A stretch of 32,000 nt of DNA. Source: Prochlorococcus marinus str. NATL2A (GTDB taxonomy: Bacteria > Cyanobacteriota > Cyanobacteriia > PCC-6307 > Cyanobiaceae). The stretch lies in the NCBI RefSeq assembly GCF_000012465.1, contig NC_007335.2, positions 1,200,001 to 1,232,000 on the forward strand. Reading direction: 5' to 3'. Below, piece by piece: positions 10,511-32,000 of the stretch. The notes beneath the pieces were generated by a model. It was not told where the DNA came from and searched no databases. It was given only the letters and a program-made list of their open reading frames with translations. Position 1 is the first letter of the stretch; every line of letters starts with the position of its first letter. Position numbers and translations under genes: made by a program.

Positions 10511-11566
10511 CTAACTCTCAGTTGTTGCGAGAGAAGCTACTGATCCAACAACACGACGGAAATCAAAGCCCATGGCTCTAAGAGCATGCCAAATATGACC
10601 TTGAATAAAGAAAAATCCAAAGTAATAATGAACATTTGACAATGCTGCTCTAGTTGTATGACCTAAAAACGCAGTGCTATCTGAGACATCTCCCGTGTCT
10701 ACCCAATAAGGAGAAATTCCAAATTTCAAAGCTAAAGGCTCTCCATACCAGTCAATTGGATAAACAGTTGTATTTTGTGCGCACCAGAATGCAGCAACAA
10801 TTGCCATCCAACCAATACCAGCAAGAGACCAGGAGAGAACGGCTTCTGCTGAAAGCAATCCTTTACCTTTGAACTCAGTGTATTCGCCTAGTTGTTTTGT
10901 AGCGATGTGCCATGCACCACCACTTATTTGAACGAATGCTAAGAATGCATGACCGCTCATTACTTCTTCTAGGCTGTCAATGGTAAGGAAGTCGAACTGA
11001 TGCCCGTAAACCATTCCAAAATCACCATATCCAGGGAAGATTGTTCTGATTTCACCTATGGCTGGATCATAAATTCCATGCCACCTTGCCCACTCGACGA
11101 ACCAAATATTTGCAACCCCAAAGAAAATCAAGTGATGTCCAAGAATGAATGTCAAATTATCTGGATTGTCCCATTCAAGTTTGAATTTCTTGGTGGTAGG
11201 AATTGGACCATCTTTCAAGTCCGGGTCAAATAAGAGTGAATGAGCTAATCCAGCTGTTCCATATACAGCTGAAAAAATCAAATGGAAAATAGCAATTGTT
11301 GCTACACCAGCTCCGGTCCATACTCCTGCTTCATCAAAGCCGAGGCCAAGAGATGCTAGATGAGCAAGAAAAATGGAACTTTGATGTCCCATTGGTATTT
11401 CTGGGTTGTAGCGAGCAAGCTCCCAAAGGGTACTTCCACCAGCTGCAAAGCAAATCAGGCCTGTGTGTCCGATATGTGACCCTATGAATCGACCAGCGCG
11501 ATTGGTCACCACAGAATTGCCAACCCACCACCCGTAGGTGACGTCTGGGTTTCCGTAGGTCTGCAT
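10511..11566 (-). CDS. pcb: Chlorophyll a/b-binding light-harvesting protein Pcb (CP43/IsiA family), copy 1
   Basis: Contains MQTYGNPDVTYGWWVGN..., HIGHTGL, NPDNLTFILGHH and HYYFGFFFIQGHIWHALRAMGFDF. The ORF track starts at a GTG at 11605, but alignment with the four paralogs places the start at the ATG 13 codons downstream (11566). Confidence 0.93.
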   Translation of the reverse strand: MQTYGNPDVTYGWWVGNSVVTNRAGRFIGSHIGHTGLICFAAGGSTLWELARYNPEIPMGHQSSIFLAHLASLGLGFDEAGVWTGAGVATIAIFHLIFSAVYGTAGLAHSLLFDPDLKDGPIPTTKKFKLEWDNPDNLTFILGHHLIFFGVANIWFVEWARWHGIYDPAIGEIRTIFPGYGDFGMVYGHQFDFLTIDSLEEVMSGHAFLAFVQISGGAWHIATKQLGEYTEFKGKGLLSAEAVLSWSLAGIGWMAIVAAFWCAQNTTVYPIDWYGEPLALKFGISPYWVDTGDVSDSTAFLGHTTRAALSNVHYYFGFFFIQGHIWHALRAMGFDFRRVVGSVASLATTES

Positions 11567-11694
11567 AATTAAGGAATTAAAGTCGAAATTTTGGCTACCA
11601 TACACTTTTTGGAATTGTTTTTACCAGAATAGTTAGAGGTCTTTATAGGTCTCTCTCATTTTTTACCAAAAAAGCTCTATTTATTTAAAAATAG

Positions 11695-11728
11695 ACAAAA
11701 AAAATACCCCCCATAATAGAGGGGTATT
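11695..11728 (-). terminator. Intrinsic terminator of pcb copy 2
   Basis: The stem atacccc/ggggtat lies about 18 nt 3' of the stop. On the minus strand it is followed by a U-run (an A-run on the plus strand at about 11697-11704). Confidence 0.65.
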
Positions 11729-11745
11729 TTTGTTTTTTTTTTAAT

Positions 11746-12858
11746 CTATCTTGGAGCTCTTCCATTGAAACCAGCGCCTTCAACCCTGACTGTTGCGCCT
11801 TCAGTATTACCAATTGCTTCGGAAACTTTCTTGAAGTCAAATCCTAAAGCACGTAAAGCATGCCAGAAATGACCCTGTAAGAAGAAAAATCCAAAGTAAT
11901 AATGAACATTAACTAAAGCAGCCCTAGTTGTGTGACCAAAGAAAGCTGTTATGCCAGTGCTATCTGCTGTATCAATCCAATATGGAGCAACTGAGAACTG
12001 TAACTTCAAAGGCTCACCAAACCACTCAATGGGATAAACGGTTGTATTGGTAGCAGCCCAGAATGCTGCAACAATTGCCATCCAACCTATACCTGCAAGA
12101 GACCATGAAAGGACTGCCTCTGCAGAAAGCAATTCAGCTCCTTTGTACTTACTCCATTCACCAAGTCTCTTGTTTTCCCATTGAGTTGAACCTGCAACCA
12201 TATGAATAGTTGCTCCGGTCAATTCTGCAAAAGCAAGAAATGCATGTCCACCCATTACATCTTCGAGACTATCAATTCCGATGAAATCAAATTGACGATT
12301 CCATATCATCGTCAAATCAAGATTGTAATTGACCTGTCTAACCGAACCAATAGCTGGATCATATATGCCGTGGATTCTTGCCCATTCAACAAAGGCTATG
12401 CAAGCCATTCCAAAGAAGAATAAATGATGGCCCAGGATAAACGTCTGATTATCCGGATTATTCCATTCCAATTTAAACTTTCTAGCTCTTGGAACCTCAC
12501 TATCTGCAACATCAGCTTCAAAATAAACTGCATGCAATAAAGCACCACCTCCGTAAACCATTGACAAAACCAAGTGAACAATGGCTACGGCTGCTACACC
12601 AACACCAGTCCAAGCTCCAGCCTCGTCAAAACCTACGCCAAAGGCGGCAAGATGCCCCAAGAATAAGGAGCTTTGATGCCCCATAGGGATCTCTGGATTG
12701 TAGCGAGCAAGTTCCCAAAGGGTACTTCCTCCAGCCGCGAATGCGATCAAGCCTGTATGCCCAATATGGGAGGCTATGAATCGACCAGAACGACTTGTGA
12801 CCACAGAATTACCAGCCCACCACTCGTAAGTAACGTCTGGATTTCCATAGCTCTGCAT
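11746..12858 (-). CDS. pcb: Chlorophyll a/b-binding light-harvesting protein Pcb, copy 2 (extended C-terminal tail)
   Basis: MQSYGNPDVTYEWWAGN... with the same conserved core. At 370 aa it has the longest C-terminal tail of the five (...GNTEGATVRVEGAGFNGRAPR). Confidence 0.93.
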   Translation of the reverse strand: MQSYGNPDVTYEWWAGNSVVTSRSGRFIASHIGHTGLIAFAAGGSTLWELARYNPEIPMGHQSSLFLGHLAAFGVGFDEAGAWTGVGVAAVAIVHLVLSMVYGGGALLHAVYFEADVADSEVPRARKFKLEWNNPDNQTFILGHHLFFFGMACIAFVEWARIHGIYDPAIGSVRQVNYNLDLTMIWNRQFDFIGIDSLEDVMGGHAFLAFAELTGATIHMVAGSTQWENKRLGEWSKYKGAELLSAEAVLSWSLAGIGWMAIVAAFWAATNTTVYPIEWFGEPLKLQFSVAPYWIDTADSTGITAFFGHTTRAALVNVHYYFGFFFLQGHFWHALRALGFDFKKVSEAIGNTEGATVRVEGAGFNGRAPR

Positions 12859-13035
12859 AATGTCTAAGCGAATCAGGGAAATATGCGTGCAGATTACACT
12901 CTGTTCAATTGATATGTGCAGAATAGTTAAAGGTCGTTATGTTTGAAATTCTTTTTTCCGGATAATTAAGAGAGACGCAAAGTCTTTTATTAGCTTTATC
13001 AAATCAATGCTTCGAAAGAATTTATTCGACCAAGT

Positions 13036-13073
13036 AAAAAAAAACAAAAAAAAGAGAGGATTAAATCCTCTCT
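13036..13073 (-). terminator. Intrinsic terminator of pcb copy 3
   Basis: The stem agagagga-ttaaa-tcctctct is preceded on the plus strand by a long A-run. This reads as hairpin plus U-run on the minus strand, about 25 nt 3' of the stop at 13098. Confidence 0.75.
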
Positions 13074-13097
13074 TTTAAAAAACAAGTTTTTAATTGT

Positions 13098-14147
13098 TTA
13101 TTCGTAAAGCTGAGCAGGAAGAGGCTCCTTAAGAATTCTCTTAAAATCAAATCCCATAGCTCTTAAAGCATGCCATAGATGACCTTGAAGGAAGAAAAAT
13201 CCAAAGTAATAATGAACATTTGCTAGAGCCGCCCTAGTCGTATGACCAAAGAAAGCTGGACCTCCTGAAAGATCAACACTATCTATCCAATAAGGAGCAA
13301 TACCAAACTTCAAGATCAATGCTTCGCCATACCAAGCTTCTGGGTAAACGGTTGTGTTCTGTGCACACCAGAAAGCAGCAACAACAGCCATCCAACCAAG
13401 ACCTGCACAAGAGAAAGAAAGAATTGCTTCTGCAGAAAGAAGACCAGCTCCTTTGAACTTGGTATATTCACCAACTTGCTTAGTAGCGATATGGAAAGCT
13501 CCACCTGTTATTTCCAAGAAAGCCAAGAAAGCATGGCCTCCCAAAACATCTTCAAGACTATCAATAGCCAAGAAATCAAACTGATGGTTCCAAATACTGG
13601 TCAAGTTAAGGTTGTACTCAACTTGTCGAACAGCTCCTATAGCAGGATCATAAATTCCATGGATTCTTGCCCATTCAACGAACCAAATACATGCAACACC
13701 AAAGAAAAGTAAATGGTGACCAAGTATAAAAGTCTGATTATCTGGGTTGTCCCACTCAAGTTTGAACTTTCTTGCTTGAGGGACCTCTGAATCTTGCATA
13801 TCGCCAACGAATAGCACCGAGTGCAATAAGCCACCGGCTCCATAGACCATGGAAAGAACCAAATGTACGATTGCAATAGAGGCAACTCCTGCCCCTGTCC
13901 AAGCACCAGCCTCATCAAAGCCGATACCAATTGAAGCTAAATGAGCAAGAAAGATCGAACTCTGATGTCCCATTGGAATCTCAGGGTTGTATCTCGCTAG
14001 TTCCCAAAGGGTACTTCCACCTGCTGCAAAGGCTATTAAGCCAGTATGAGCAATGTGTGCAGCAATGAATTTACCTGATTTGTTTGTAACCCCAGCATTT
14101 CCAGCCCACCAACCATAGGTGACATCCGGGTTTCCGTAGGTCTGCAT
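13098..14147 (-). CDS. pcb: Chlorophyll a/b-binding light-harvesting protein Pcb, copy 3
   Basis: MQTYGNPDVTYGWWAGN... with a conserved Pcb core over the full 349 aa. Confidence 0.93.
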   Translation of the reverse strand: MQTYGNPDVTYGWWAGNAGVTNKSGKFIAAHIAHTGLIAFAAGGSTLWELARYNPEIPMGHQSSIFLAHLASIGIGFDEAGAWTGAGVASIAIVHLVLSMVYGAGGLLHSVLFVGDMQDSEVPQARKFKLEWDNPDNQTFILGHHLLFFGVACIWFVEWARIHGIYDPAIGAVRQVEYNLNLTSIWNHQFDFLAIDSLEDVLGGHAFLAFLEITGGAFHIATKQVGEYTKFKGAGLLSAEAILSFSCAGLGWMAVVAAFWCAQNTTVYPEAWYGEALILKFGIAPYWIDSVDLSGGPAFFGHTTRAALANVHYYFGFFFLQGHLWHALRAMGFDFKRILKEPLPAQLYE

Positions 14148-14324
14148 GATTTAAGTTTTTTGGCGTAATACGGTGAGCACACCTTACAGGCACCTGAATT
14201 CAAAAACTACCAATAGTCATAAGGCGTATAAAGAAGTAGTAAAGTTTTTTTTCTTCAAATTGGCTCAACCCCCAACTAAACTAGGTTTTCATGGAAATAC
14301 TCAAGAAAAATTTAAATATCAAAA

Positions 14325-14519
14325 ATGAAATCTGCTTTACAACTTGAATTACAAGACCTTCATGGACTTCCTTATGTAGCAACAATAATTTGGTTTGTTC
14401 TGCTTGGAGTTTCTCTTTTAGCTGTGGTTTTTTATCTTTTTCAGAAAAATTCACCATCCAAAAGAAAAGTTGATGAGGTTTCTCCCACTGAGAAGAAATC
14501 TCGTGCAAAAGGGTTTTAA
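14325..14519 (+). CDS. Hypothetical single-TM small protein inside the pcb array
   Basis: 64 aa with an ATG start, one TM segment (YVATIIWFVLLGVSLLAVVFYLF) and a basic C-terminal tail. There is no family assignment. Confidence 0.35.
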   Translation: MKSALQLELQDLHGLPYVATIIWFVLLGVSLLAVVFYLFQKNSPSKRKVDEVSPTEKKSRAKGF

Positions 14520-14634
14520 ATGACTAAGAAAATTTTGTTTTTCAATGTTAGTTCTCAAATTAATGTAATATCCTCAAACACGGGTTTGGCATAGTGGCCA
14601 CCTGGGTTAACTATAAAAACAATTTTTTTATTCA

Positions 14635-14841
14635 ATGATTGATTTTTCTCACCTTCTTGATTTTGCCACTCAGCTTCCACACCCATCAGATATTGGTTTA
14701 ATCAAACCATCCGGTGGATTTAATATAGCCGCAGCTCTTTGTGGACTTGGAGCAGTTTTTGGAGCGTCTCAATTCTTCTACTATTCTGATGATTCAAAAA
14801 GGATCGATCCTTGGGCTAAGCCTGACAACTACAAAAACTAA
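14635..14841 (+). CDS. Hypothetical single-TM small protein inside the pcb array
   Basis: 68 aa with an ATG start and a Gly/Ala-rich TM segment (FNIAAALCGLGAVFGASQFFYY). A strong hairpin terminator follows within about 35 nt. Confidence 0.45.
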   Translation: MIDFSHLLDFATQLPHPSDIGLIKPSGGFNIAAALCGLGAVFGASQFFYYSDDSKRIDPWAKPDNYKN

Positions 14842-14872
14842 AGAAAGTTAAAACCTCTTTAATTTTTTTCAA

Positions 14873-14911
14873 TAAAAAAAGAGTCTCGTCTTTTGACGAG
14901 ACTCTTTTTTA
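14873..14911. terminator. Bidirectional intrinsic terminator (small ORF on +, pcb copy 4 on -)
   Basis: aaaaaaa-gagtctcgtc-tttt-gacgagactc-tttttt forms a 10-bp stem with A- and T-runs on either side. Confidence 0.8.
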
Positions 14912-14931
14912 ATGCTGAAAGACTCAGAAAA

Positions 14932-16020
14932 TCAATCAGTTAGAGTAACTCTTGCTCCATCAAGATTACTAATTGCATCAGTAACCTTTTTGAAATCAAA
15001 GCCTAGAGCACGTATTGCATGCCAAAGGTGTCCTTGAATAAAGAAGAAACCAAGATAGTAATGAACATTCGCAAGCCAAGCTCTTGAAGTATGACCACTA
15101 ACGACACCAGTCATATCAGCAGTATCAATCCAATATGGAGAGATTCCAAACTTAAGAGCTAATGTTTCTCCGTACCAAGCCTCTGGATAAACAGTTGTAT
15201 TGGTTGCACACCAGAAAGCGGCAATAATTGCCATCCAACCAATACCAGCAAGAGACCAGGAAAGAACTGCTTCAGCAGAAAGAATATTCTTCCCTTTGAA
15301 TTCTGTGTATTCTCCAGTCTGCTTCGTAGCGATATGGAAAGCACCACCTGTGATCTCAACAAATGCTAAGAATGCATGACCACCCATAACATCCTCCAGA
15401 CTATCAATAGCCAAGAAATCAAACTGATGATTCCAAATGTTGGTCAAGTTTAAGTTGTACTCGACTTGTCGAACAGCTCCTATTGCAGGATCGTAAATCC
15501 CATGTATTCGAGCCCACTCAACAAACCAAATACATGCAACACCAAAGAAAATCAAATGGTGACCAAGAATAAAAGTCTGATTATCTGGATTATCCCATTC
15601 AAGCTTGTATCTTGCTGCCTGACGATGTTCAGGACGATCATCAGCAAACAAACCTGAACTATTTTGGGTATCTTCGCTAAAAATCAGAGAGTGCAATAGA
15701 CCTGCACCCGCATAAACCATTGAACAAATCAGATGGAATACTCCGATAAAAGCAATTGATGTTCCGTCGAATACTGTTCCAGTTGGATCAAATCCAATAC
15801 CAATAGAAGCAAGGTGTGGGATGCTCACCATTCCTTGGTGTCCCATTGGAATATCTGGGTTGTATCTAGCGAGCTCCCAAAGTGTGTTGGCACCAGCTGC
15901 GAAACAAATCAATCCTGTATGAGCAACATGCGAGCCAATAAATCGGCTTGACTTATTTGTTACGACAGAATTACCAACCCACCACCCGTAGGTGACGTCT
16001 GGGTTTCCGTAGGACTGCAT
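14932..16020 (-). CDS. pcb: Chlorophyll a/b-binding light-harvesting protein Pcb, copy 4 (divergent, with loop insertion)
   Basis: MQSYGNPDVTYGWWVGN... with the conserved core. It has a divergent segment (MGHQGMVSIPHLASIGIGFDPTGTVFDGTS). It also has a 9-residue longer loop before the (F/Y)KLEW motif (SEDTQNSSGLFADDRPEHRQAARYKLEW). Confidence 0.93.
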   Translation of the reverse strand: MQSYGNPDVTYGWWVGNSVVTNKSSRFIGSHVAHTGLICFAAGANTLWELARYNPDIPMGHQGMVSIPHLASIGIGFDPTGTVFDGTSIAFIGVFHLICSMVYAGAGLLHSLIFSEDTQNSSGLFADDRPEHRQAARYKLEWDNPDNQTFILGHHLIFFGVACIWFVEWARIHGIYDPAIGAVRQVEYNLNLTNIWNHQFDFLAIDSLEDVMGGHAFLAFVEITGGAFHIATKQTGEYTEFKGKNILSAEAVLSWSLAGIGWMAIIAAFWCATNTTVYPEAWYGETLALKFGISPYWIDTADMTGVVSGHTSRAWLANVHYYLGFFFIQGHLWHAIRALGFDFKKVTDAISNLDGARVTLTD

Positions 16021-16213
16021 AATTGAGGAAATTGAAGTCGAAATTCGACCTACCTTACATTTAGTGCAATAAATTTGCTTGAAATCGTAAAAGGTCTTTA
16101 TTTAATGCACAAAAATAATCAATAGAAGAGCTTTAATTATTCATTGATTTTGCTTACAAAACTAGTATCAAAAAGGATTTGAGAATCCTAGTTAAATAGC
16201 AGTCAATATTTTA

Positions 16214-16244
16214 ATAAAAAAAGCCCCGCAAAAATTACGGGGCT
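16214..16244 (-). terminator. Intrinsic terminator of pcb copy 5
   Basis: The stem agccccg-caaaaatta-cggggct is preceded on the plus strand by an A-run, giving hairpin plus U-run on the minus strand. It lies about 29 nt 3' of the stop at 16273. Confidence 0.8.
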
Positions 16245-16272
16245 TCAGAGATTATCCAATCAATTGAATTAG

Positions 16273-17337
16273 TTAGTCATTAAGAGTGATTTGTGCCCTA
16301 TCTAAACCAGCTACAGCATTTGTAACTCTCCTAAAGTCAAAGCCTAATGCACGAATAGCGTGCCATAAATGACCTTGTAAGAAGAAGAATCCAAAATAAT
16401 AATGGACATTTGTTAAAGCAGCTCTTGTGGTGTGACCTGCTAGTGCAGTGCTCTCACTTACCTCTACAGTATCGATCCAATAGGGAGAAATTCCAAATTT
16501 CAAAGCTAAAGGCTCTCCAAACCAAGGTTCAGGATAAACAGTTGTATTTGTTGCGCACCAGAATGCTGCGACAATCGCCATCCAACCAATACCTGCCAAT
16601 GAGAAAGATAAAACAGCTTCGGCAGAAAGGATCCCAGCTCCTTTGAATTCTGTGTATTCTCCTACCTGCTTAGTTGCGATATGGAAAGCACCACCAGTTA
16701 TCTCAACAAATGCTAAAAACGCATGGCCGCCCAAAACATCTTCAAGATTATCTATAGCTAAGAAATCAAACTGATGGTTCCAAATATTGGTCAAATTAAG
16801 GTTGTACTCAACTTGTCGAACAGCTCCTATTGCTGGGTCATAAATCCCGTGAATTCTGGCCCATTCAACAAAAGCAATACAAGCCACCCCAAAGAAAATA
16901 AGATGGTGACCCAAAATAAATGTCAAATTATCGGGATTGTCCCATTCAAGCTTGAATTTTTGAGTAGTAGGTCCTGGCCCATCAGCCAAATCCCCATCAA
17001 AGAGCAGAGAGTGAGAAAGAGCTCCTCCTGCATAAACAAGAGAAGCAATAATATGGACAATTGCTACTGAAGCAACATTCGCTCCAGTCCAAACACCTGC
17101 ATCATCAAATCCAATTCCAATAGATGCAAGATGAGCGAGAAAGATAGAGCTTTGGTGCCCCATGGCTATAGAAGGATCAAACCTAGCTAGCTCCCAAAGA
17201 GTGCTAGCTCCTGCAGCAAATGAAATTAGGCCAGTATGACCAGCATGGGCTGCAATGAACTTTCCAGCGCGGTTGGTAACCCTTGAATTACCAGCCCACC
17301 ACCCGTAGGTGACATCTGGATTTCCATAGGTCTGCAT
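16273..17337 (-). CDS. pcb: Chlorophyll a/b-binding light-harvesting protein Pcb, copy 5
   Basis: MQTYGNPDVTYGWWAGN... with a conserved Pcb core over 354 aa. Confidence 0.93.
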   Translation of the reverse strand: MQTYGNPDVTYGWWAGNSRVTNRAGKFIAAHAGHTGLISFAAGASTLWELARFDPSIAMGHQSSIFLAHLASIGIGFDDAGVWTGANVASVAIVHIIASLVYAGGALSHSLLFDGDLADGPGPTTQKFKLEWDNPDNLTFILGHHLIFFGVACIAFVEWARIHGIYDPAIGAVRQVEYNLNLTNIWNHQFDFLAIDNLEDVLGGHAFLAFVEITGGAFHIATKQVGEYTEFKGAGILSAEAVLSFSLAGIGWMAIVAAFWCATNTTVYPEPWFGEPLALKFGISPYWIDTVEVSESTALAGHTTRAALTNVHYYFGFFFLQGHLWHAIRALGFDFRRVTNAVAGLDRAQITLND

Positions 17338-23248: not shown

Positions 23249-24094
23249 TTAAGTGATATCAATTTTCCACTCTAGTTCACTTTTTAAGTTAGAAGGTCCA
23301 ACAAAACTTCCTCTTAGTGGTGCTACAAGTTCAGATTTTGAAGAAGAGGCCAAAGCAACATAATTATGATTAATCAGTCCGCACCCACTGGGGTCAAAAC
23401 CTCTCCATCCAAAACCAGGTATATAAACCTCTGTCCATGCATGTAATTCATACTTATCAGGAGCTTGATCCATAAATTGATATCCGCTTACAAAACGACT
23501 GGGTATACCAACACATCTACAAGTTTCCATTAACAATATTGCTAAATCTCGGCAAGAACCTACTCTCTCGCTCAGAGTCCTTCCAGAAGTCCATGCTGGT
23601 CCAATATGTCTTGGAGTATATTTAACTCTATCTTTAATTAATTCAATTAAATGATATAAAAAATCCAAAACATTATTATTTATTCCTGCTAAAGCCTCTT
23701 GGGCAATTCTAATAGCGGCAGGATCATGCTGGCCATTAGGAAACCATCCTTTAATAAAACCAATTAATGAATCATTGGATTCAATCTTCAAAGGTAAACT
23801 TAAATCATAATCATTCTTCAACTGATATAAATCTGGGTGGATATTTGTTTCTATATCACTTTCTGTTTTTATCTTTAAAGAATTTGTAGACCCTGTAAAT
23901 AGCAATTTAAAAATATCATCTCCATTATCTGATAGCAAAGGGAAAATAGAATATGGAGAGGGAAAGATTTGCAGATCGAAATTAGATAATTCCTGAAAGC
24001 TATTAGACCTTGGCTTAAGACAAATTAAATGCTCTTCTAGTGATACCGGAATTTCATAATTATAAACTAATGTATGAATTATTTTCTTTTTCAT
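23249..24094 (-). CDS. Transglutaminase-like cysteine peptidase-fold protein
   Basis: A catalytic Cys context (GSCRDLAILLMETCRCVGIPSRFVSGY) is followed by HAWTEVYIPGFGWRGFDPS (His and Asp of the triad). The start overlaps the upstream gene by 4 nt (ATGA). Confidence 0.85.
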   Translation of the reverse strand: MKKKIIHTLVYNYEIPVSLEEHLICLKPRSNSFQELSNFDLQIFPSPYSIFPLLSDNGDDIFKLLFTGSTNSLKIKTESDIETNIHPDLYQLKNDYDLSLPLKIESNDSLIGFIKGWFPNGQHDPAAIRIAQEALAGINNNVLDFLYHLIELIKDRVKYTPRHIGPAWTSGRTLSERVGSCRDLAILLMETCRCVGIPSRFVSGYQFMDQAPDKYELHAWTEVYIPGFGWRGFDPSGCGLINHNYVALASSSKSELVAPLRGSFVGPSNLKSELEWKIDIT

Positions 24095-25065
24095 CCTTGT
24101 AAAGATTCAAAATCAAACTTTTTATCATTTCTAAAATAAATCCCATGTATAAGATCATGCAATTTATTTAAATCAATTTGAAGACTATCAATAGCCTCAT
24201 GTAAACCATCTTTAATCAAGTGATCGATTCTTACAAAGCTCCATTTTGAAAGCAATAATCCTATTAAACATTCAAGATCATTTGGTTTTTTTGAAACGGG
24301 TGAATTTTGAATTTTACTCAAAGATTCATTAATACCTTCGAGGCAAAATCTAACTGATCTTGGAAAGATAGGGTCCAGCAACAAAAAGCTAGCAATTGCA
24401 TTTGGTGTTATTGAACCTTGCTCAGATATTCTAAACATTTGATAAGCACCCGCTGATCGTAATAAAGAAATCCACTGAAGCTCATCCAAGGCTCCTCCAA
24501 GTTCTTTTAGATTTGGTAAAAGTAAAAAGTATTTTACATCTAATATCCTAGAAGTTTTATCAGCTCTCTCAATCAACCTTCCTAATTTACTAAAATTCCA
24601 TGCTATATCATGACTAAAAGTAGCATCAGTAACTCCATAAAACAATTGACAACCTCTTCTAATTTCAAATAATTGTTCTTGAGCAGGTTGATGCCAGATC
24701 ACCTCACCTTCTTGAATACTCCAATATAAACTATTAATTTGTTCCCACATTTCAGAAGTGATCACATCTCTTATTTGACGTGCATTTTCTCTTGCCATAC
24801 AAATACAGCTTAAAATGCTATTAGGATTTTCTCTATCTTTAATAAGGAAATTTGCGACATCACTAGGAGTTTTATTTAGATAGCTTTCATCAAACTTATT
24901 TCTATCTCCACTAGCGTCTACCAAAGGCAACCAAGGCTCAGCACTCCCAGGAGGACAATCTAGTGCCATAGACTCACTCACCTCAACAAATCTAGAAATA
25001 TTTTCTGCACGTTCAAGATATCTGTTAATCCAATAAAGTGATTCAGCGACTCTGCTTAATAACAT
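24091..25065 (-). CDS. Alpha-E domain protein (DUF403)
   Basis: MLLSRVAESLYWINRYLERAENISRFVEV is the characteristic N-terminus of alpha-E/DUF403 proteins. The all-helical 324-aa protein sits between the ATP-grasp and transglutaminase-like genes. Confidence 0.8.
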   Translation of the reverse strand: MLLSRVAESLYWINRYLERAENISRFVEVSESMALDCPPGSAEPWLPLVDASGDRNKFDESYLNKTPSDVANFLIKDRENPNSILSCICMARENARQIRDVITSEMWEQINSLYWSIQEGEVIWHQPAQEQLFEIRRGCQLFYGVTDATFSHDIAWNFSKLGRLIERADKTSRILDVKYFLLLPNLKELGGALDELQWISLLRSAGAYQMFRISEQGSITPNAIASFLLLDPIFPRSVRFCLEGINESLSKIQNSPVSKKPNDLECLIGLLLSKWSFVRIDHLIKDGLHEAIDSLQIDLNKLHDLIHGIYFRNDKKFDFESLQG

Positions 25066-25074
25066 TTTTTATTA

Positions 25075-26514
25075 TTAACCAACCACCCAAGTATCCTTAC
25101 ATCCACCTCCTTGAGAAGAGTTAACAATCAAAGAATCGCGTTTTAAGGCTACTCTTGTTAATCCTCCAGGACTTACCCAAGTATTCTTTCCTCTAAGGAC
25201 ATAGGGTCTCAAATCAACATGACAGGGATAAACTTCACCATCACTAAGGGATGGAACTGTAGACAAGTCTAATGTTGGTTGAGCTATATAATTTCTTGGA
25301 TTAGCTTTTATCTTTGCTGAAAATTTATCAATATCTATTTGAGATGAGTGTGGTCCAATTAACATTCCATAACCGCCTGCTTCAGAGACACTTTTAACAA
25401 CTAACTTACCAAGGTTTTCTAGTACAAAACTAAGGTCACTTGATCTTGCACAAACATATGTTTTAACATTATTAATTATTGGTTCCTCTTTTAGATAATA
25501 CCTAATCATTTCAGGTACAAAAGTATAAATTAATTTATCATCTGCTAGCCCTGTTCCAGGTGCATTTGCAATAGCCACTCGACCTTTCTTCAATACATCA
25601 ATAAGACCTGGAACTCCAAGCATTGAATCTTTTCTAAAAAACTTAGGGTCTAAATAATCATCATCTATTCGACGATATATTACATCAACTTTTTTAATCC
25701 CAGAAGTAGTTTTCAAATAAACATTTTGGTTCTGACAAACTAAATCACTTCCTTCTACTAGTTGAATACCCATTTGTTGGGCTAAGTAACTGTGCTCAAA
25801 ATATGCACTATTAAAAACACCAGGAGTCAGCAGAACAACTTTCGGTGTATCCGTCCAGACGGCTAATTCCTGGAGTGATTTCAGTAAATATGACGGATAA
25901 TCTTCAATAGGCCTAACAACTCTGCCGTTAAAAAGGCTTGGGAAAATCCTTTTCATTACTAATCTATTTTCTAAGAAATAAGCAACTCCTGAAGGACAGC
26001 GAAGGTTGTCCTCTAAAACAAGCCATTCGCCATTTCCATCTCTAATAAGATCTAGACCAGATACATGGCACCATTTCCCAAGAGGAAGAACAAAGCCCTT
26101 CATTTGAGGTCTCCAGCCATCAGAGCTTTCAATGAAATCTCTTGGAATAATCCCATCATTAATTATTTGTTGTTTTCCATATACATCAGCTAAAAATAAA
26201 TCTATGGCTTCGAGTCTTTGTATAAGTCCCCTCTCTAAACCTAACCATTCTAAAGAACCTATTACTCTTGGAAGAGGGTCAAAAGGGAGAATCCTTTCAG
26301 AACCTTTGCTACCTGAATCATTGAGACGAAAAGTAGCTCCATGACGAAGAAGAAGCTTTCTCGCGATCTCATGACTAATGTTCAACTGATGTAAGCCCAT
26401 CTCTCCTAAAGAGGTAAGTAAAGGCTCTAGTGATGACCTCGGCAAAAAATCATCAGAAGAAAAATATTCATCGAAACCCTTTTTAGGTTGATAATCTTTA
26501 AACATATCAACCAA
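25075..26514 (-). CDS. Circularly permuted ATP-grasp type 2 protein (DUF404/DUF407)
   Basis: The 479-aa protein has its length and motifs (RPDGW..., VLEDNLRCPSGVAYFLENR, VVKSVSEAGGYGMLIGP, LTRVALKRDSLIVNSSQGGGCKDTWV) typical of this family. It is the first gene of a three-gene operon. The listed start is TTG at 26514, with an alternative ATG three codons in. Confidence 0.8.
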   Translation of the reverse strand: MVDMFKDYQPKKGFDEYFSSDDFLPRSSLEPLLTSLGEMGLHQLNISHEIARKLLLRHGATFRLNDSGSKGSERILPFDPLPRVIGSLEWLGLERGLIQRLEAIDLFLADVYGKQQIINDGIIPRDFIESSDGWRPQMKGFVLPLGKWCHVSGLDLIRDGNGEWLVLEDNLRCPSGVAYFLENRLVMKRIFPSLFNGRVVRPIEDYPSYLLKSLQELAVWTDTPKVVLLTPGVFNSAYFEHSYLAQQMGIQLVEGSDLVCQNQNVYLKTTSGIKKVDVIYRRIDDDYLDPKFFRKDSMLGVPGLIDVLKKGRVAIANAPGTGLADDKLIYTFVPEMIRYYLKEEPIINNVKTYVCARSSDLSFVLENLGKLVVKSVSEAGGYGMLIGPHSSQIDIDKFSAKIKANPRNYIAQPTLDLSTVPSLSDGEVYPCHVDLRPYVLRGKNTWVSPGGLTRVALKRDSLIVNSSQGGGCKDTWVVG

Positions 26515-26783: not shown

Positions 26784-29700
26784 TTAGAACAAACCAGTTA
26801 CCTCACTAAATAAAGCCTTATTCTCTAACGACTCAGCAAAACCTAATAACAATTCTCCTCTATTTTCTTGCCCACTGTCTAACTGCTCAACCCAATAATC
26901 ATAACCACCTTGATCTGCATCTCTACCAAGAATATTTTTATATAGATTGTTCACATACGTTCCTGTGTCAACATCAGCTCCATAAGTAGATTTAAACTCT
27001 TCAGAACCTAAGAAAGAATCAGCTACTTGACGGTTACTATTTTCACCAGACGAGTTTTTATCAATCCAATATTCAAGTCCATCAGAATCAGGGAATCTTG
27101 CAAAAGCAGCGTTGTAAACCCTAAACATTTGTCCCGTTGAATCATCTTTCGATTTCACCTGATCAAACGTCTCTTTAATATCGCTAATTCCACTAAAAGA
27201 TTTATCATTAAACTCCAGTTTTGGAACGCCAGTAATATCATCGAATCCATCCTCAGTCTTAACTTCTATTGTTCCATCTTCTCTTTTAAAGAATTTAAAG
27301 TCTTTACTATCACCCGTATATGTTTTAACAACATCTAGTTTAGAAACGTCTACCTTCTGATCGGCGAATTGAATATATTCGACATTCTTTAAAGTGTCAT
27401 TTCCATCATTCAGTCCCTCTCTTTGATCTTGAATCGCAACTGTATCTTTTGTTCGATCAAACTTATAATCAGCAAAATTTCCGGCATAGAACGCAACATC
27501 TTCTCCTTCTCCTCCATCAATAAAGTCTGACCCCAAGCCACCAAAAATCTTGTCAGAAGTCTCGCCTCCTTCCAATCTGTCATCACCGTCATCTTTACTC
27601 TTTACTAGCGACGCCCAATGGCTTGTCGAATCCAATTCAGCTCCATCTCCTTGGGGTTTCTTTAAATCATCAATTTCTTGCCATGGATAAGCGACTTCAC
27701 TAATGGGTTTTTTATCTAAAGCAACTGCCGTTGGATCTAGATTCGCTAATGAAATCACAGCAAGTGCATCTGCTTCTACTGCTTCGGCATGAGCTCTACC
27801 TTCATCAGTCAATGCCCAATCAGCAACACTTAGTCCTGCAGCTAATGCTGCTTCTTCAGGTATCAGACTCACTTCATTTGAAGTAAGAAGGGAATTTGCT
27901 AAGTTTGCTGCCTCTTTAATGGGATCCGTAGTCGCTCCCCAGTAACCCGCTGTTTTATTCGCCTCATTATCTAGTGACGTATCAAAATGCTTGGCATCTG
28001 TCACCCAAGCACCATTAGTAGCCTGATACCCTCCTGCTGATTTGATTTCTTCCGCTGTAATCCCTTCTGGAATTGCAGGCTTTACTTCTCCTTCTGGTGC
28101 TTTCCATCCATCTTTCTCAAAATCTTCTGATTTCACCCATTGGCCAAATGGATCCCAAAAACCTCCATCAGTTTTAATATCCGTCGCTGCAGGTGGTGCC
28201 CAGGCAACAGTTTGAGCATCCGCGCTTCCTTCTCCAAAATGAGCTACGGAAGAAACCCATTTTTTATCGGCATCAAAATATCCACCGTTCTTTTTAATTT
28301 CATCGGTTTCAGGAACAGTTCCCGTGTTATTCAAAAACTCCTTGGATGTGACCCACTTACCATTGGGGTTTCTAAAACCACCATCTTTTTTAATCAATTC
28401 ATCTGGAGGGACAGTCCATCCAGCTGATGATGGATCTTTGAAATAATCGTCTTCTTTAACAAACGTTCCATCAGATTTTGTAAAGCCTCCTGATTTAGCA
28501 ATTGCATCTGCTTCTGGTGGAGTCCAAACAGTCGTTTCTGCTGGTTTATCTCCAGTTGTTCGTTTGCCAAAGAAAGAATCTGCTGTCATCCATTCACCAT
28601 CAGGTCCCCGTAGACCGCCTTCCCAGCGAATGATCTCGTCTTTTGGAAGCACCCAATTTTTAACTGCTGCCGCAGCATCAGGTGCCATTTTTGCTAATTG
28701 ATCCGGAGTAACCGCAGCAAATGATTCTGGATCAAGTTCTTTTAAGGTCTGACCTTTAAATCCAGCCATTGCTTCTGCGTCAAACGCTGCAATGTGCGTT
28801 GGATCAAATCCCTCCATCGCCAAGGGATCAAACGCTGCAATCTGATCTTTTCCAAAGCCTGCTACTGCAGTTGGGGCAAACGCTGCAAAATGATCTTTAT
28901 CAAAACCGGCCATCGCCATTGGATCAAACGCCGCAGCATGCGTGTGATCAAATCCAGCAACTGCCATTGGATCAAACGCCGCAGCATGCGTGTGATCAAA
29001 TCCAGCAACTGCCATTGGGTCAAACGCCGCAGCATGCGTGTGATCAAATCCAGCAACTGCCATTGGATCAAAGGCTGCAAAATGCGTGTGATCAAATCCA
29101 GCAACTGCCATTGGGTCAAACGCAGCAACATGCTCGGGATCAAATCCAGCGACTGCCATTGGGTCAAAGGCTGCAAAATGCGTGTGATCAAATCCAGCAA
29201 CTGCCATTGGGTCAAACGCCGCAGCATGCGTGTGATCAAATCCAGCAACTGCCATTGGATCAAAGGCTGCAAAATGCGTGTGATCAAATCCAGCAACTGC
29301 CATTGGGTCAAACGCCGCAGCATGCGTGTGATCAAATCCAGCAACTGCCATTGGATCAAAGGCTGCAAAATGCGTGTGATCAAATCCAGCAACTGCCATT
29401 GGGTCAAACGCGGCAACATGATCGGGATCAAATCCAGCGACTGCCATTGGGTCAAACGCAGCAACATGCTCGGGATCAAATCCAGCCATTGCCATTGGAT
29501 CAAAGGCTGCAAAATGCGTGTGATCAAACCCTGCAACTGCCATCGGGTCAAAGGCTGCAAAATGCGTATGATCGAACCCTGCAACTGCCATCGGGTCAAA
29601 CGCAGCAACATGCTCGGGATCAAAACCAGCCATGGCCATTGGATCAAAAGCAGCAACATGGTCTTTACCTAGACCTGCCATGTAGCCGTAATCAATCGCC

Positions 29701-32000
29701 GCAAAATGATCCGCATTAAACCCAGCCATCGCTGTTGGATCAAATGCAGCAAATTGATCTTGATCTAAACCTGCTATAGCTTGTGCATCTAAGGCAGCGA
29801 CATGGTCAGCTTTAAATCCAGCCATCGCTTCAGTATCAAAAGCACCCATGTGCTGGTAATCAAAACCAGCCATGGCCATTGGATCAAAAGCAGCAACATG
29901 GTCTTTACCTAGACCTGCCATGTAGCCGTAATCAATCGCCGCAAAATGATCCGCATTAAACCCAGCCATCGCTGTTGGATCAAATGCAGCAAATTGATCT
30001 TGATCTAAACCTGCTATAGCTTGTGCATCTAAGGCAGCGACATGGTCAGCTTTAAATCCAGCCATCGCTTCAGTATCAAAAGCACCCATGTGCTGGTAAT
30101 CAAAACCAGCCATGGCCATTGGATCAAAAGCAGCAACATGGTCTTTACCTAGACCTGCCATGTAGCCGTAATCAATCGCCGCAAAATGATCCGCATTAAA
30201 CCCAGCCATCGCTGTTGGATCAAATGCAGCAAATTGATCTTGATCTAAACCTGCTATAGCTTGTGCATCTAAGGCAGCGACATGGTCAGCTTTAAATCCA
30301 GCCATCGCTTCAGTATCAAAAGCACCCATGTGCTGGTAATCAAAACCAGCCATGGCCATTGGATCAAAAGCAGCAACATGGTCTTTACCTAGACCTGCCA
30401 TGTAGCCGTAATCAATCGCCGCAAAATGATCCGCATTAAACCCAGCCATCGCTGTTGGATCAAATGCAGCAAATTGATCTTGATCTAAACCTGCTATAGC
30501 TTGTGCATCTAAGGCAGCGACATGGTCAGCTTTAAATCCAGCCATCGCTTCAGTATCAAAAGCACCCATGTGCTGGTAATCAAAACCAGCCATGGCCATT
30601 GGATCAAAAGCAGCAACATGGTCTTTACCTAGACCTGCCATGTAGCCGTAATCAATCGCCGCAAAATGATCCGCATTAAACCCAGCCATCGCTGTTGGAT
30701 CAAATGCAGCAAATTGATCTTGATCTAAACCTGCTATAGCTTGTGCATCTAAGGCAGCGACATGGTCAGCTTTAAATCCAGCCATCGCTTCAGTATCAAA
30801 AGCACCCATGTGCTGGTAATCAAAACCAGCCATGGCTGCAGTATCAAAAGCAGCAACATGGTCTTTACCAAAACCGGCGACTGCGGTTGGGTCAAAAGCG
30901 GCAAAGTGATCTCTACCAAAACCGGCGACTGCGGTTGGGTCAAAAGCGGCAAAGTGATCTTTTCCAAAACCGGCGACTGCCGTTGGAGCAAACGAGGCAA
31001 ATTGATCTCTATCAAAATCGCTAACCAAAGAAAACTCAAGATTGGAAATATCTTCTTCACTAAAGGAATCTGGTCTTATTCCACCTATAAGTTCAGCTTT
31101 TGCCCTAGCTTCTGCCCTTCTCCCCATCTCTTCCGCCCTAGCTCTACCTTCTGGGGTATCTGAGTAGTCTTCAGGTGCTAGGCCTGCTGCTGCTGCTGCT
31201 GCCTCAAACTCATCTCTTTCAGCTAAATCTTGAGCACTTGGTCCTTCAGGAGGTTCAAATCCATAAATGCCTTGTCCTTCTCCAGCCAATGTCATTTGGG
31301 CTAAAGCTTCCTCTTCTACTGCTTGAGAATGTGCTCGTCCTTCTGCAGTGTTTGCCCAGTCCGCAACACTAAGCCCTGCTGCAGCTGCTTGCTGATCTGG
31401 GCTCAATAGACCAGAAGGAGAAGGGTCAGGAGGAGAGAAAACATATCCACCTTGACCATCAACAGCCCAATTTGCTGGGGGCATTAAGGATCCATCTTCA
31501 CCTCTTTGCCATCCATCAATTTCACTTTGGCTGGCTTGCTGACCTAGATTATTGCCCGGTGAAGGGAGTATTAGTCCTGCGGCTATGTCCCTTTCTTCTG
31601 CCCTTCTACCCATCTCCTCAGCTCTAGCCCTGCCTTCAGGAGTATCCGAGTAGTCCTCTAAAGCGAGGCCTGCTGCTGCTGCTGCTGCTTCTAACTCTGC
31701 TATATCAGCTAAAGCTTCAGCAGATAGTCCTGGTGGCTCTTCTCTTCGATGATTTCTATCAAAATCATTTTCTGCTTCTCCAGGAACATATTCTCCTGAA
31801 GCTATATCCATAGCCTCCTGCCTATCTGCAAACGCCATACCCTCTTCAGTCATTGCCCAGTCAGCTTCACTAAGACCTGCTGCTGCCGCTGCTGCCTGGC
31901 TCTCGTTTCTGGCAGCTAGATCTCGCTCACTTAGATCTGGTGGTACATATCCTGGGATTTCAGATGGTGGTACATATCCGGGATCTCCATGTGGTGGTAC
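26784..32000 (-). CDS. Giant repetitive Ala/Asp/Gly-rich protein, 5'-partial; RTX-like Ca-binding motif and DUF4214-like C-terminus (probable secreted or cell-surface protein)
   Basis: The frame stays open from 31853 to the window edge. The upstream translation is ...VPPHGDPGYVPPSEIPGYVPPDLSERDLAARNESQAAAAAAGLSEADWA-MTEEG... with no stop and no ATG/GTG/TTG. The listed Met is therefore internal and the start lies beyond 32000. The C-terminal part contains GGLGSDFIDGGEGED. The last roughly 110 aa (VYNAAFARFPDSDGLEYW...NNLYKNILGRDADQGGYDYWVEQL...LLLGFAESLEN) resemble DUF4214. Confidence 0.85.
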   Translation of the reverse strand, partial: VPPHGDPGYVPPSEIPGYVPPDLSERDLAARNESQAAAAAAGLSEADWAMTEEGMAFADRQEAMDIASGEYVPGEAENDFDRNHRREEPPGLSAEALADIAELEAAAAAAGLALEDYSDTPEGRARAEEMGRRAEERDIAAGLILPSPGNNLGQQASQSEIDGWQRGEDGSLMPPANWAVDGQGGYVFSPPDPSPSGLLSPDQQAAAAGLSVADWANTAEGRAHSQAVEEEALAQMTLAGEGQGIYGFEPPEGPSAQDLAERDEFEAAAAAAGLAPEDYSDTPEGRARAEEMGRRAEARAKAELIGGIRPDSFSEEDISNLEFSLVSDFDRDQFASFAPTAVAGFGKDHFAAFDPTAVAGFGRDHFAAFDPTAVAGFGKDHVAAFDTAAMAGFDYQHMGAFDTEAMAGFKADHVAALDAQAIAGLDQDQFAAFDPTAMAGFNADHFAAIDYGYMAGLGKDHVAAFDPMAMAGFDYQHMGAFDTEAMAGFKADHVAALDAQAIAGLDQDQFAAFDPTAMAGFNADHFAAIDYGYMAGLGKDHVAAFDPMAMAGFDYQHMGAFDTEAMAGFKADHVAALDAQAIAGLDQDQFAAFDPTAMAGFNADHFAAIDYGYMAGLGKDHVAAFDPMAMAGFDYQHMGAFDTEAMAGFKADHVAALDAQAIAGLDQDQFAAFDPTAMAGFNADHFAAIDYGYMAGLGKDHVAAFDPMAMAGFDYQHMGAFDTEAMAGFKADHVAALDAQAIAGLDQDQFAAFDPTAMAGFNADHFAAIDYGYMAGLGKDHVAAFDPMAMAGFDPEHVAAFDPMAVAGFDHTHFAAFDPMAVAGFDHTHFAAFDPMAMAGFDPEHVAAFDPMAVAGFDPDHVAAFDPMAVAGFDHTHFAAFDPMAVAGFDHTHAAAFDPMAVAGFDHTHFAAFDPMAVAGFDHTHAAAFDPMAVAGFDHTHFAAFDPMAVAGFDPEHVAAFDPMAVAGFDHTHFAAFDPMAVAGFDHTHAAAFDPMAVAGFDHTHAAAFDPMAVAGFDHTHAAAFDPMAMAGFDKDHFAAFAPTAVAGFGKDQIAAFDPLAMEGFDPTHIAAFDAEAMAGFKGQTLKELDPESFAAVTPDQLAKMAPDAAAAVKNWVLPKDEIIRWEGGLRGPDGEWMTADSFFGKRTTGDKPAETTVWTPPEADAIAKSGGFTKSDGTFVKEDDYFKDPSSAGWTVPPDELIKKDGGFRNPNGKWVTSKEFLNNTGTVPETDEIKKNGGYFDADKKWVSSVAHFGEGSADAQTVAWAPPAATDIKTDGGFWDPFGQWVKSEDFEKDGWKAPEGEVKPAIPEGITAEEIKSAGGYQATNGAWVTDAKHFDTSLDNEANKTAGYWGATTDPIKEAANLANSLLTSNEVSLIPEEAALAAGLSVADWALTDEGRAHAEAVEADALAVISLANLDPTAVALDKKPISEVAYPWQEIDDLKKPQGDGAELDSTSHWASLVKSKDDGDDRLEGGETSDKIFGGLGSDFIDGGEGEDVAFYAGNFADYKFDRTKDTVAIQDQREGLNDGNDTLKNVEYIQFADQKVDVSKLDVVKTYTGDSKDFKFFKREDGTIEVKTEDGFDDITGVPKLEFNDKSFSGISDIKETFDQVKSKDDSTGQMFRVYNAAFARFPDSDGLEYWIDKNSSGENSNRQVADSFLGSEEFKSTYGADVDTGTYVNNLYKNILGRDADQGGYDYWVEQLDSGQENRGELLLGFAESLENKALFSEVTGLF
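28921..29640 (-). repeat. 48-bp near-identical tandem repeat x15 (16-aa units FDPMAVAGFD[HTH/PEH/PDH][F/A/V]AA)
   Basis: Units such as ggatcaaacgccgcagcatgcgtgtgatcaaatccagcaactgccatt repeat head to tail from 28921. The variants differ at a handful of positions and encode HTHFAA, HTHAAA, PEHVAA or PDHVAA. Confidence 0.9.
29619..30836 (-). repeat. 240-bp tandem repeat, 5 copies, identical at every position I compared (80-aa super-units of five 16-aa sub-units)
   Basis: The sequence lines starting at 29641, 29881, 30121, 30361 and 30601, and the three lines after each, are letter-for-letter identical. The protein repeats one 80-aa unit five times. That unit is GFDYQHMGAFDTEAMAGFKADHVAALDAQAIAGLDQDQFAAFDPTAMAGFNADHFAAIDYGYMAGLGKDHVAAFDPMAMA. 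Confidence 0.95.

Follow-up and report, generated by a model that had tools for sequence, protein, structure and literature searches.

The window analysed here, 32,000 nucleotides (nt) of Prochlorococcus marinus str. NATL2A (NC_007335.2, positions 1,200,001 to 1,232,000), ends in a minus-strand gene for a long and hierarchically repetitive protein, and the question raised by this locus is what kind of repeat the protein carries, what the repeat folds into and what it might do for the cell. A first-pass annotation had read the gene product as a giant protein with no recognisable core family and had placed it, as a candidate, at the cell surface in contact with grazers or phage. Profile searches showed that the repeats belong to the Pfam family PF20080 (ALTTAQ_rpt), of which they form a divergent subtype. 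The array is predicted by modelling to be a rigid alpha-helical-screw rod, and the comparison of strains documented, for the first time here, variation in the length of that rod.

The translation, cut from FDRDQFASFAPTAVAG, gave 47 consecutive units of 16 amino acids (aa) in perfect register and with no indels, followed by two degenerate units. The array spans nt 31016 down to 28761, or down to 28665 with the degenerate units, and comprises 784 residues, i.e., about 98 octads or 49 double octads. The earlier count of roughly 47 units between about 28740 and 31020 was thus accurate, and the three levels that had been described (diverged 16-mers, five identical 80-aa super-units and fifteen near-identical 16-mers) were all recovered. 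The five 240-nt copies of the super-unit showed 0 nucleotide differences, and Tandem Repeats Finder (TRF) reported periods of 48, 240 and 480 nt, that of 240 nt with 5.2 copies, 99% matches and a score of 2467. Each 16-mer consists of two octads, as the annotation had proposed, and the 8-residue period is real and far beyond chance. Odd octads follow the pattern F/L-D/G-x-D/T-H-(F/V)-A-A and even octads the pattern F/L/I-D-P-x-A-(M/V)-A-G, with Asp at position 2 in 45 of 47 even octads and Pro at position 3 in 30 of 47. Four other open reading frames (ORFs) lying in the array, at 28769-29719 (+), 28794-29672 (+), 28862-29659 (-) and 30762-31163 (+), were rejected as genes and are stop-free by-products of the repeat.

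The statement that the protein has no recognisable core family had to be abandoned. PF20080 scored 56.7 bits with the whole protein (5 stretches) and 66.0 bits with the array alone (6 stretches), the Pfam gathering cutoff being 26.4 bits. Because perfect repeats can build spurious summed scores of a hidden Markov model (HMM), three scrambled controls were run (global shuffle, fixed within-octad permutation and reversal), and none of the three matched PF20080; the reversed array gave a spurious 53.9-bit match to Tsi6 with no individual stretch. Matches to UBA_3, PPARgamma_N, HTH_Tnp_Mu_2 and DUF1421 were likewise discarded as artefacts, being summed scores on the repeats with 0 stretches. In a profile–profile comparison with hhalign, the array and actinobacterial ALTTAQ arrays aligned with 99.3% probability (E 2.6e-20) in a shared 16-aa register, and the octad logo F/L, D, P, x, A/H, M/V/F, A, G/A has the hydrophobic residues at positions 1 and 6, the polar cap at 2 and the small residues at 7 and 8 that define an ALTTAQ octad. 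RTX (repeats-in-toxin) and DUF4214 matches at the C-terminus also contradict the absence of known families. The annotation had noted a loose resemblance to the L-T-x-x-Q-x-A-A octads of some giant bacterial surface proteins, and it was right to do so, as those octads are PF20080 itself. It had also allowed for a match to a well-characterised repeat family; a confident HMM match was indeed obtained, to a family that has a name but no characterised function.

An exhaustive HMMER search with units 1-20 against 1.84 billion cluster representatives returned 572 representatives at E<=1e-3 and 41 at E<=1e-30, mostly proteins of 600-5500 aa, many of them with an N-terminal signal peptide. Several relatives from the first search already carried the PF20080 annotation, and seven of nine sampled top relatives were PF20080-positive (33-133 bits), two also having Big_5 Ig-like domains. 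The length of these relatives and the signal peptides or Ig-like domains of many point to an extracellular location. Among the named sources are Acidimicrobiaceae, Burkholderiaceae, a Pseudomonadota metagenome-assembled genome, SAR202 and an amoebozoan transcriptome, and marine relatives carry the exact F-x-x-D-(H/Q)-V-A-A-(F/L)-D-P-T-A-(M/V)-A-G subtype. The amoebozoan sequence (P0058, Soliformovum irregulare) is PF20080-positive and has a signal peptide and a C-terminal transmembrane anchor, and the repeat type is thus not restricted to bacteria; a further octad-repeat relative, P0072, has the same two features and no Pfam match. No mention of ALTTAQ was found in the literature searched, so that we regard the family as named yet uncharacterised. 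The NATL2A array shares with it the 8-residue period (hydrophobic, polar cap, P/T, x, Q/H, hydrophobic, A, A/G) and the double-octad register. It differs in being a Phe/Asp/His-rich subtype, FxxDH(V)AA-FDPxA(M)AG, and in being joined to RTX, DUF4214 and orphan modules in a protein with no signal peptide. The His/Phe-rich 16-mer subtype together with this domain architecture is new and was seen here in no sequences other than those of Prochlorococcus type.

A sequence search of the Protein Data Bank (PDB) with the array returned a single strong match, HeliScrew4 (9zem_A; E 2e-10, or 4.4e-13 with a profile), to which the block of units 30-44 aligns. HeliScrew4 was described in a preprint on 8-mer alpha-helical screws, in which short helices wind tightly and clockwise round a central axis, each turn of the superhelix taking up 2.5-4 units (10.64898/2025.12.04.691947). 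The designs combine an apolar core with Pro at N1 and S/T/D/N as N-cap, and one of them was solved at 2.2 A; the authors, who counted 7QLR as the only natural example among PDB entries, spoke of the helical screw as structural "dark matter" (10.64898/2025.12.04.691947). The HeliScrew4 octad, L-(S/T)-P-(E/D)-(Q/K)-(I/V/F)-A-A, agrees with the Prochlorococcus octads at each position, and the single short helix predicted for each octad of the NATL2A array fits the HeliScrew4 architecture. As HeliScrew4 is a designed protein, the likeness is not one of homology but of convergence on a pattern that determines the fold. AlphaFold2 modelled units 20-39 with a mean predicted local distance difference test (pLDDT) score of 93.2 and a predicted template modelling (pTM) score of 0.84, from an alignment of shifted copies of the array itself, which may inflate the confidence. 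DSSP assigned 40 helices of 4-6 residues to the 320 residues of the model, one per octad. On these models, the 98 octads might form a rod of roughly 25-40 nm, assuming a rise of about 1 nm per turn at 2.5-4 octads per turn. A Foldseek search of the rod model against the viral structures of BFVD gave template modelling (TM) scores of at most 0.26. The models allow ALTTAQ repeats to be tentatively connected with the helical-screw fold, a connection that, as far as we found, is new.

The same octads could also be read as a His-rich rod that binds metal or senses pH, with a His/Asp stripe chelating Zn, Ni, Co or Cu at the surface. His stands at octad position 5 in 40 of the 47 odd octads, with an extra His in the FDHTH units, and the array contains 6.5% His and 13% Asp; the D-H-T-H block is kept between NATL2A and Prochlorococcus sp. 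MIT 0916, and 'D-H' recurs at the equivalent position in marine relatives of other phyla (P0006, P0010 and P0055). Position 5, however, is Gln or Lys in most family members and in HeliScrew4, so that His is most simply understood as their structural equivalent in a hydrogen-bond ladder, and no known metal-binding motif or family was matched. We therefore hold metal binding or pH sensing to be improbable.

Read on the minus strand from 32000 to 26784, the window holds 1738 sense codons followed by a TAA; no stop codon interrupts them, and the frame is still open where the window ends. The listed ORF (26784..31853) is shorter because the ORF program begins at the first ATG. Over 16.9 kb, the window is identical to the NCBI assembly GCA_047285275.1 (locus L001), in which the complete gene occupies L001:4257-9722 and encodes 1821 aa. 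The annotation had correctly stated that more than 1738 aa are encoded and that the N-terminus is missing from the window; the missing piece amounts to only 83 residues, and for a complete protein of 1821 aa the label "giant" is generous. An in-frame TAA lies immediately 5' of the ATG in L001, which fixes the N-terminus as MTGTPENISPPPSGDPGYMPPP.... The N-terminal sequence (MTGTPENISPPPSGDPGY/MTGTPENISPPPSGDPGYMPPP...) is a Pro-rich nonapeptide repeat that, judged by eye, has no hydrophobic signal peptide, and this Pro-rich region extends 249 nt past the window to the true start, MTGTPENISPPPSGDPGY. The recovery of the N-terminus that had been recommended thus yielded the 83 residues and no signal peptide, and the RTX repeats, a type of secretion-associated module, were found at the other end of the protein. 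The full-length protein has 0 Cys and 303 acidic vs. 105 basic residues.

A picocyanobacterial host, as the annotation had assumed, was confirmed by the neighbouring 476-aa protein, which is identical to AAZ58224.1 of P. marinus NATL2A, and by a genome scan in which all five related loci were Prochlorococcus, four of them cut inside or near the repeats. The overall GC content of the gene is raised (0.45-0.49), while its GC content at third codon positions, 0.24-0.31, equals that of neighbouring genes; the raised GC is attributable to Ala, Gly, Asp and Pro codons, and a foreign origin was ruled out by the host-like third positions. A phage origin was ruled out as well, since a scan of viral contigs with the repeat gave no match. 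Exact look-up of the 1821-aa protein and of its 1490-aa MIT 0916 ortholog in the cluster collection found neither, no promoter or terminator was found in a scan downstream of the gene, and no mention of the assembly accessions, or of Prochlorococcus together with DUF4214, was found in the literature.

The ortholog lies in the closed genome of MIT 0916 at the equivalent locus, upstream of a circularly permuted ATP-grasp gene (L009:7277-11749), and is an intact ORF. Over 599 aligned C-terminal codons, the ratio of nonsynonymous to synonymous substitution rates (dN/dS) between the two strains was 0.09, with 0.03 in the RTX and beta module, 0.036 in DUF4214 and 0.12 in the orphan region, which indicates strong purifying selection. 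In addition, metagenomic fragments reach the stop codon, so that disruption of the ORF in related strains, which the annotation had named as a possible objection, was not what we saw. The gene is native, functional and under purifying selection. MIT 0916 has 4.3 homogenised super-units and six units of the H-T-H type, about 31-33 units vs. 49 in NATL2A, with the five unit types in the same order within the super-unit, and its N-terminus carries a (PA)n/PSPEPSPGR repeat in place of the Pro-rich repeat of NATL2A. The comparison across strains that had been called for thus revealed copy-number differences, and on these sequences the arrays show concerted evolution with copy-number change. A metagenome scan returned only two short contigs, and the metagenomic fragments show further variants of the repeat unit.

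NATL2A also carries a paralogue of 1538 aa, which lies outside the window upstream of position 32000 (L001:1-2760) and is separated from the gene by a psbA copy (L001:2845-3927). Its octad units differ (FGKDQVAGFDPTAMAG...), and its 3' 2 kb has 98.7-99.9% DNA identity to the gene, which suggests recent duplication or gene conversion; the comparison covered the part of the paralogue that follows its first 618 residues. The stretch that holds a fifth Ala-rich motif in the gene is missing from the paralogue, which has 26 nt there vs. 164 nt. In MIT 0916, the corresponding 3 kb between ychF and the ortholog (L009:4170-7276) contains only small ORFs with no Pfam match. The presence of psbA and the paralogue in NATL2A and of only small ORFs in MIT 0916 argues for a variable, island-like spot. 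Another assembly, GCA_047285065.1 (locus L002), differs from the window at 29134, in unit 40, by one nonsynonymous GAG->GCG change (Glu->Ala; L002:7372), and the adjacent psbA differs at a single base (L002:3471). These two differences may reflect either true variation among substrains or errors of draft assembly; L001, too, contains an N.

Four independent short-read assemblies (L003-L006) all stop at one place, 45 nt into the ORF from its 3' end (26784-26829) and 325 nt upstream of the neighbouring gene. The near-identical paralogue is the likely cause of these breaks, through which short-read assemblies systematically lose the gene. This raises the question of whether the hierarchy of the array is in part an assembly artefact, or a low-complexity spacer with little structure and no functional meaning. 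The super-units are identical in DNA and cannot be counted by short-read assemblies, contigs do break at the gene, and the Tsi6 score of the reversed array illustrates how summed HMM scores on perfect repeats can mislead. However, two Mb-scale assemblies give equal copy number, the closed MIT 0916 genome keeps the order of the five-unit super-unit with homogenised copies of its own, all 784 residues keep perfect register without a single indel, and the array has a confident fold prediction and a crystallised sequence analogue. We consider an artefact or a structureless spacer very improbable.

Three modules follow the orphan region at the C-terminus and bear on how the protein may reach the surface. 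The RTX nonapeptides matched PF00353 at 25.4-28.5 bits (cutoff 23 bits; residues 1473-1505 of the window protein) and align with the PDB entries 9cse, 'Large adhesion protein', and 2agm, the RTX repeats of an epimerase. The beta-rich module behind them has a motif that recurs in the RTX proteins P0033 and P0034, and a module of this kind follows RTX repeats in many secreted proteins. DUF4214 then runs to the last residue. NCBIfam searches with the protein gave only a sub-threshold RTX_toxin match. A protein that is acidic, free of Cys and of a signal peptide, and ends in RTX, post-RTX and DUF4214 modules is most likely exported by a type I secretion system (T1SS). We know of no consensus for the uncleaved C-terminal secretion signal of such systems.

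Taking these features together, we have proposed a plausible model. Each octad would form one short helix with Asp as N-cap, Pro at N1, Phe/Val/Met in the core and Ala/Gly at packing positions, and the octad helices would wind round a shared axis into a stiff, narrow rod whose length is set by copy number. Unequal recombination between the identical 240-nt and the near-identical 48-nt units would lengthen or shorten the rod, and the repeat units would be homogenised within a genome and diverge between strains. The protein would be exported unfolded through a T1SS and folded by extracellular calcium; the C-terminal module would then hold it on the outer surface, and the rod, together with the variable Pro-rich N-terminus, would point away from the cell and make up a variable coat or spacer with an effect on the access of phage or grazers. 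We infer the secretion route, the surface retention and the shielding role. We give about an even chance to a surface rod on NATL2A-type cells that depends on calcium, varies in length and probably leaves the cell by type I secretion, and that possibly serves as a shield against phage or grazers. Interaction with phage or grazers at the cell surface, which the annotation had put forward, is the leading functional hypothesis.

For the C-terminal module, the closest functional parallel is Psh (PP_1794) of Pseudomonas putida KT2440, an RTX-DUF4214 protein that needs a restored T1SS for export and confers broad phage resistance, gives neighbouring cells no cross-protection, and has been proposed to form a surface coat by which phage receptors are masked (10.64898/2026.09.02.748959). 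The NATL2A protein likewise has RTX repeats followed by a C-terminal DUF4214, a domain that is helix-rich in Psh. In contrast, Psh as described has no ALTTAQ rod or Pro-rich N-terminus, and its gene adjoins T1SS and O-antigen genes, which the NATL2A gene does not. Among picocyanobacteria, giant proteins with haemolysin-like and adhesion domains have been found in exoproteomes and are thought to shield cells, giant Synechococcus surface proteins have been linked to the shielding of cells and to escape from grazing, and diversifying selection by phage and grazers has been proposed for Prochlorococcus cell-surface proteins. SwmB and the other giant proteins of marine Synechococcus resemble the NATL2A protein in being large, highly repetitive, strain-specific proteins of the picocyanobacterial surface or exoproteome. 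SwmB is set apart by its description, with 10,791 aa and a function in swimming motility, compared with 1821 aa here. Prochlorococcus is a non-motile genus.

Several observations weigh against the surface-rod model, besides the self-derived alignment behind the AlphaFold2 rod. On the repeat side, a single super-unit reached only 22 bits against PF20080, which is under the threshold, and the fifteen near-identical units 30-44 alone gave no ALTTAQ match in Pfam; the family signal comes mainly from the super-units, which, with the undetected block, argues for a divergent subtype. When the rod model was compared with PDB structures by Foldseek, 9ZEM was not among the matches, which were weak solenoids only (mesothelin, TM score ~0.3). 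On the export side, there are only about 3-4 RTX nonapeptides, some 235 residues before the C-terminus, and no T1SS genes (ATP-binding cassette transporter, membrane fusion protein or outer membrane factor) were found in the 26 kb of the window downstream or the ~4 kb upstream in L001, a locus of 21 kb. In MIT 0916 the one candidate near the ortholog is a short gene for a 357-aa HlyD-family adaptor; it lies 4.4 kb upstream on the opposite strand and may belong to an unrelated efflux system. AlphaFold2 modelling of the C-terminal 674 residues with 5 homologs gave a mean pLDDT of 37 and was unusable; the fifth Ala-rich copy was the only stretch outside DUF4214 to reach ~70. On the functional side, the likeness to Psh was seen at the level of shared Pfam domains and architecture, the O-antigen binding of Psh is an in-silico docking result (10.64898/2026.09.02.748959), and no expression, localisation or phenotype data on the gene were found.

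A second account of the C-terminal modules is a released or vesicle-associated RTX exoprotein or adhesin for particles, cells or heterotroph partners, in which the rod would be a stalk that extends reach. MpIBP and LapA are RTX adhesins and models for such a stalk. The RTX and post-RTX module aligns with the 'Large adhesion protein' 9cse, giant haemolysin- or adhesin-like proteins occur free in Synechococcus exoproteomes, and many ALTTAQ proteins carry Big_5 Ig-like domains and signal peptides. Like known RTX adhesins and T1SS substrates such as 9CSE, the NATL2A protein has GGxGxD nonapeptides followed by a beta module (E 1.7e-3) and is acidic, Cys-free and without a signal peptide, with a long repetitive extender. 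Its extender is, however, a predicted helical-screw array and not a series of Ig-like/BIg repeats, its nonapeptides number only 3-4, and it has neither an N-terminal retention module nor adjacent transporter genes. Pfam-type searches likewise recognised no ligand-binding or adhesin domain in it, Prochlorococcus is a free-living planktonic cell, and DUF4214 has been tied to surface association of an RTX protein (10.64898/2026.09.02.748959). A released adhesin is thus unlikely in our view, and we retain the surface-anchored rod as the working model.

The regions outside the array are listed with its parts in Table 1. The acidic N-terminal region had no Pfam or PHROGs match, and a PDB sequence search gave only chance-level PDZ matches. 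The orphan region had no relative in Pfam, PHROGs or the PDB, its homologs are confined to Prochlorococcus loci and a few marine fragments, and its AlphaFold2 model was of low confidence. PHROGs gave nothing with any of the three non-repeat regions.

Table 1. Features of the repeat-protein gene in the 32,000-nt window, in window coordinates and from the 3' to the 5' end of the gene.
Feature	Position	Strand	Basis or remark
Stop codon TAA	26784..26786	(-)	Translation
C-terminal DUF4214, two stretches, to last residue	26787..27128	(-)	PF13946, 110-117 bits
Post-RTX beta-rich module, AGNFADYKFD...VEYIQFADQKVDVSKL...	27129..27485	(-)	Aligns to 9cse_A, E 1.7e-3
RTX-type calcium-binding nonapeptides, DDRLEGGETSDKIFGGLGSDFIDGGEGEDVAFY	27486..27584	(-)	PF00353
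Fifth copy of Ala-rich motif, AAGLSVADWALTDEGRAHAEAVEADALAV	27732..27842	(-)	Inside the 164-nt stretch that is 26 nt in the upstream paralogue
Orphan region, six ~26-aa motifs P-x-x-(D/E)-I-x-x-x-GG(F/Y)-x3-(D/N)G-x-W-V-x5-F	27909..28664	(-)	Motif positions
Repeat units 45-49, diverged/degenerate, capping the array, end ...FKGQTLKELDPESFAAVTPDQLAKMAPDAAAA	28665..28904	(-)	Kept in paralogue and MIT 0916 ortholog
Repeat units 30-44, fifteen near-identical 16-mers FD(H/P)(T/E/D)H(F/V/A)AAFDPMA(V/M)AG, His-rich	28905..29624	(-)	Unit cutting
Repeat units 5-29, five 80-aa (240-nt) super-units	29625..30824	(-)	Bear the Pfam ALTTAQ_rpt signal
Repeat units 1-4, diverged 16-aa double octads, array start	30825..31016	(-)	Weak ALTTAQ match, 13 bits
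Acidic N-terminal region	31017..31934	(-)	Motif positions
Ala-rich motif AAAAAAGL(S/A)x(A/E)D(W/Y)xxTxEG(R/M)A..., four copies	31773-31895, 31566-31688, 31272-31388, 31080-31202	(-)	
IDGWxRGxDGSLMPPxNWAVDGxGGYV motif, one copy	31428-31520	(-)	
End of Pro-rich N-terminal repeat region (PPxGDPGYVPP / SEIPGYVPP)	31935..32000	(-)	Translation, TRF period 27

Other parts of the window were noted in passing. Directly downstream of the gene, at 23249-26505 (-), lies a conserved triad of circularly permuted ATP-grasp, Alpha-E and transglutaminase-like genes that is syntenic in MIT 0916; no evidence of a functional link between this triad and the repeat protein was seen. Five tandem genes of 349-370 aa at 10511-17337 (-) form a second GC-rich block (GC 0.42-0.44). 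Two of the five were checked against Pfam and both matched PF00421 (Pcb/IsiA-like antenna), and the other three were assigned from size and GC. At 9792-10433 (+), a 213-aa ORF encodes an N-terminal hydrophobic helix followed by 18.4 perfect 18-nt copies encoding TPEPE(A/V). It gave only a sub-threshold low-complexity match in Pfam and could be a second small repeat protein, possibly membrane-anchored.

The analysis provides a concrete structural hypothesis for the uncharacterised ALTTAQ family, backed by a designed crystal structure with a shared octad pattern. The family comprises hundreds of clusters of large extracellular bacterial proteins and has at least one eukaryotic relative, and our results suggest that a fold seen as nearly absent from nature may in fact serve many large bacterial surface proteins as their stalk. 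That ALTTAQ is a natural home of the helical screw and that, jointly, Prochlorococcus uses it as a rigid, recombination-tuned surface spacer on a type-I-secreted RTX-DUF4214 anchor is a combination we put forward tentatively and regard as rather doubtful as a whole. Short-read assemblies break at the gene, so that it is under-represented in metagenomic gene catalogues. A conserved gene whose rod length and N-terminus differ between close strains, at a recombination-prone spot, makes variation of the cell surface plausible, and such variation bears on coexistence with phage and on avoidance of grazers. The parallel with the Psh phage shield makes the surface-shield idea testable. If it is true, Prochlorococcus populations could vary the thickness and composition of a coat that excludes phage or grazers simply by the gain and loss of identical 48-nt or 240-nt units.

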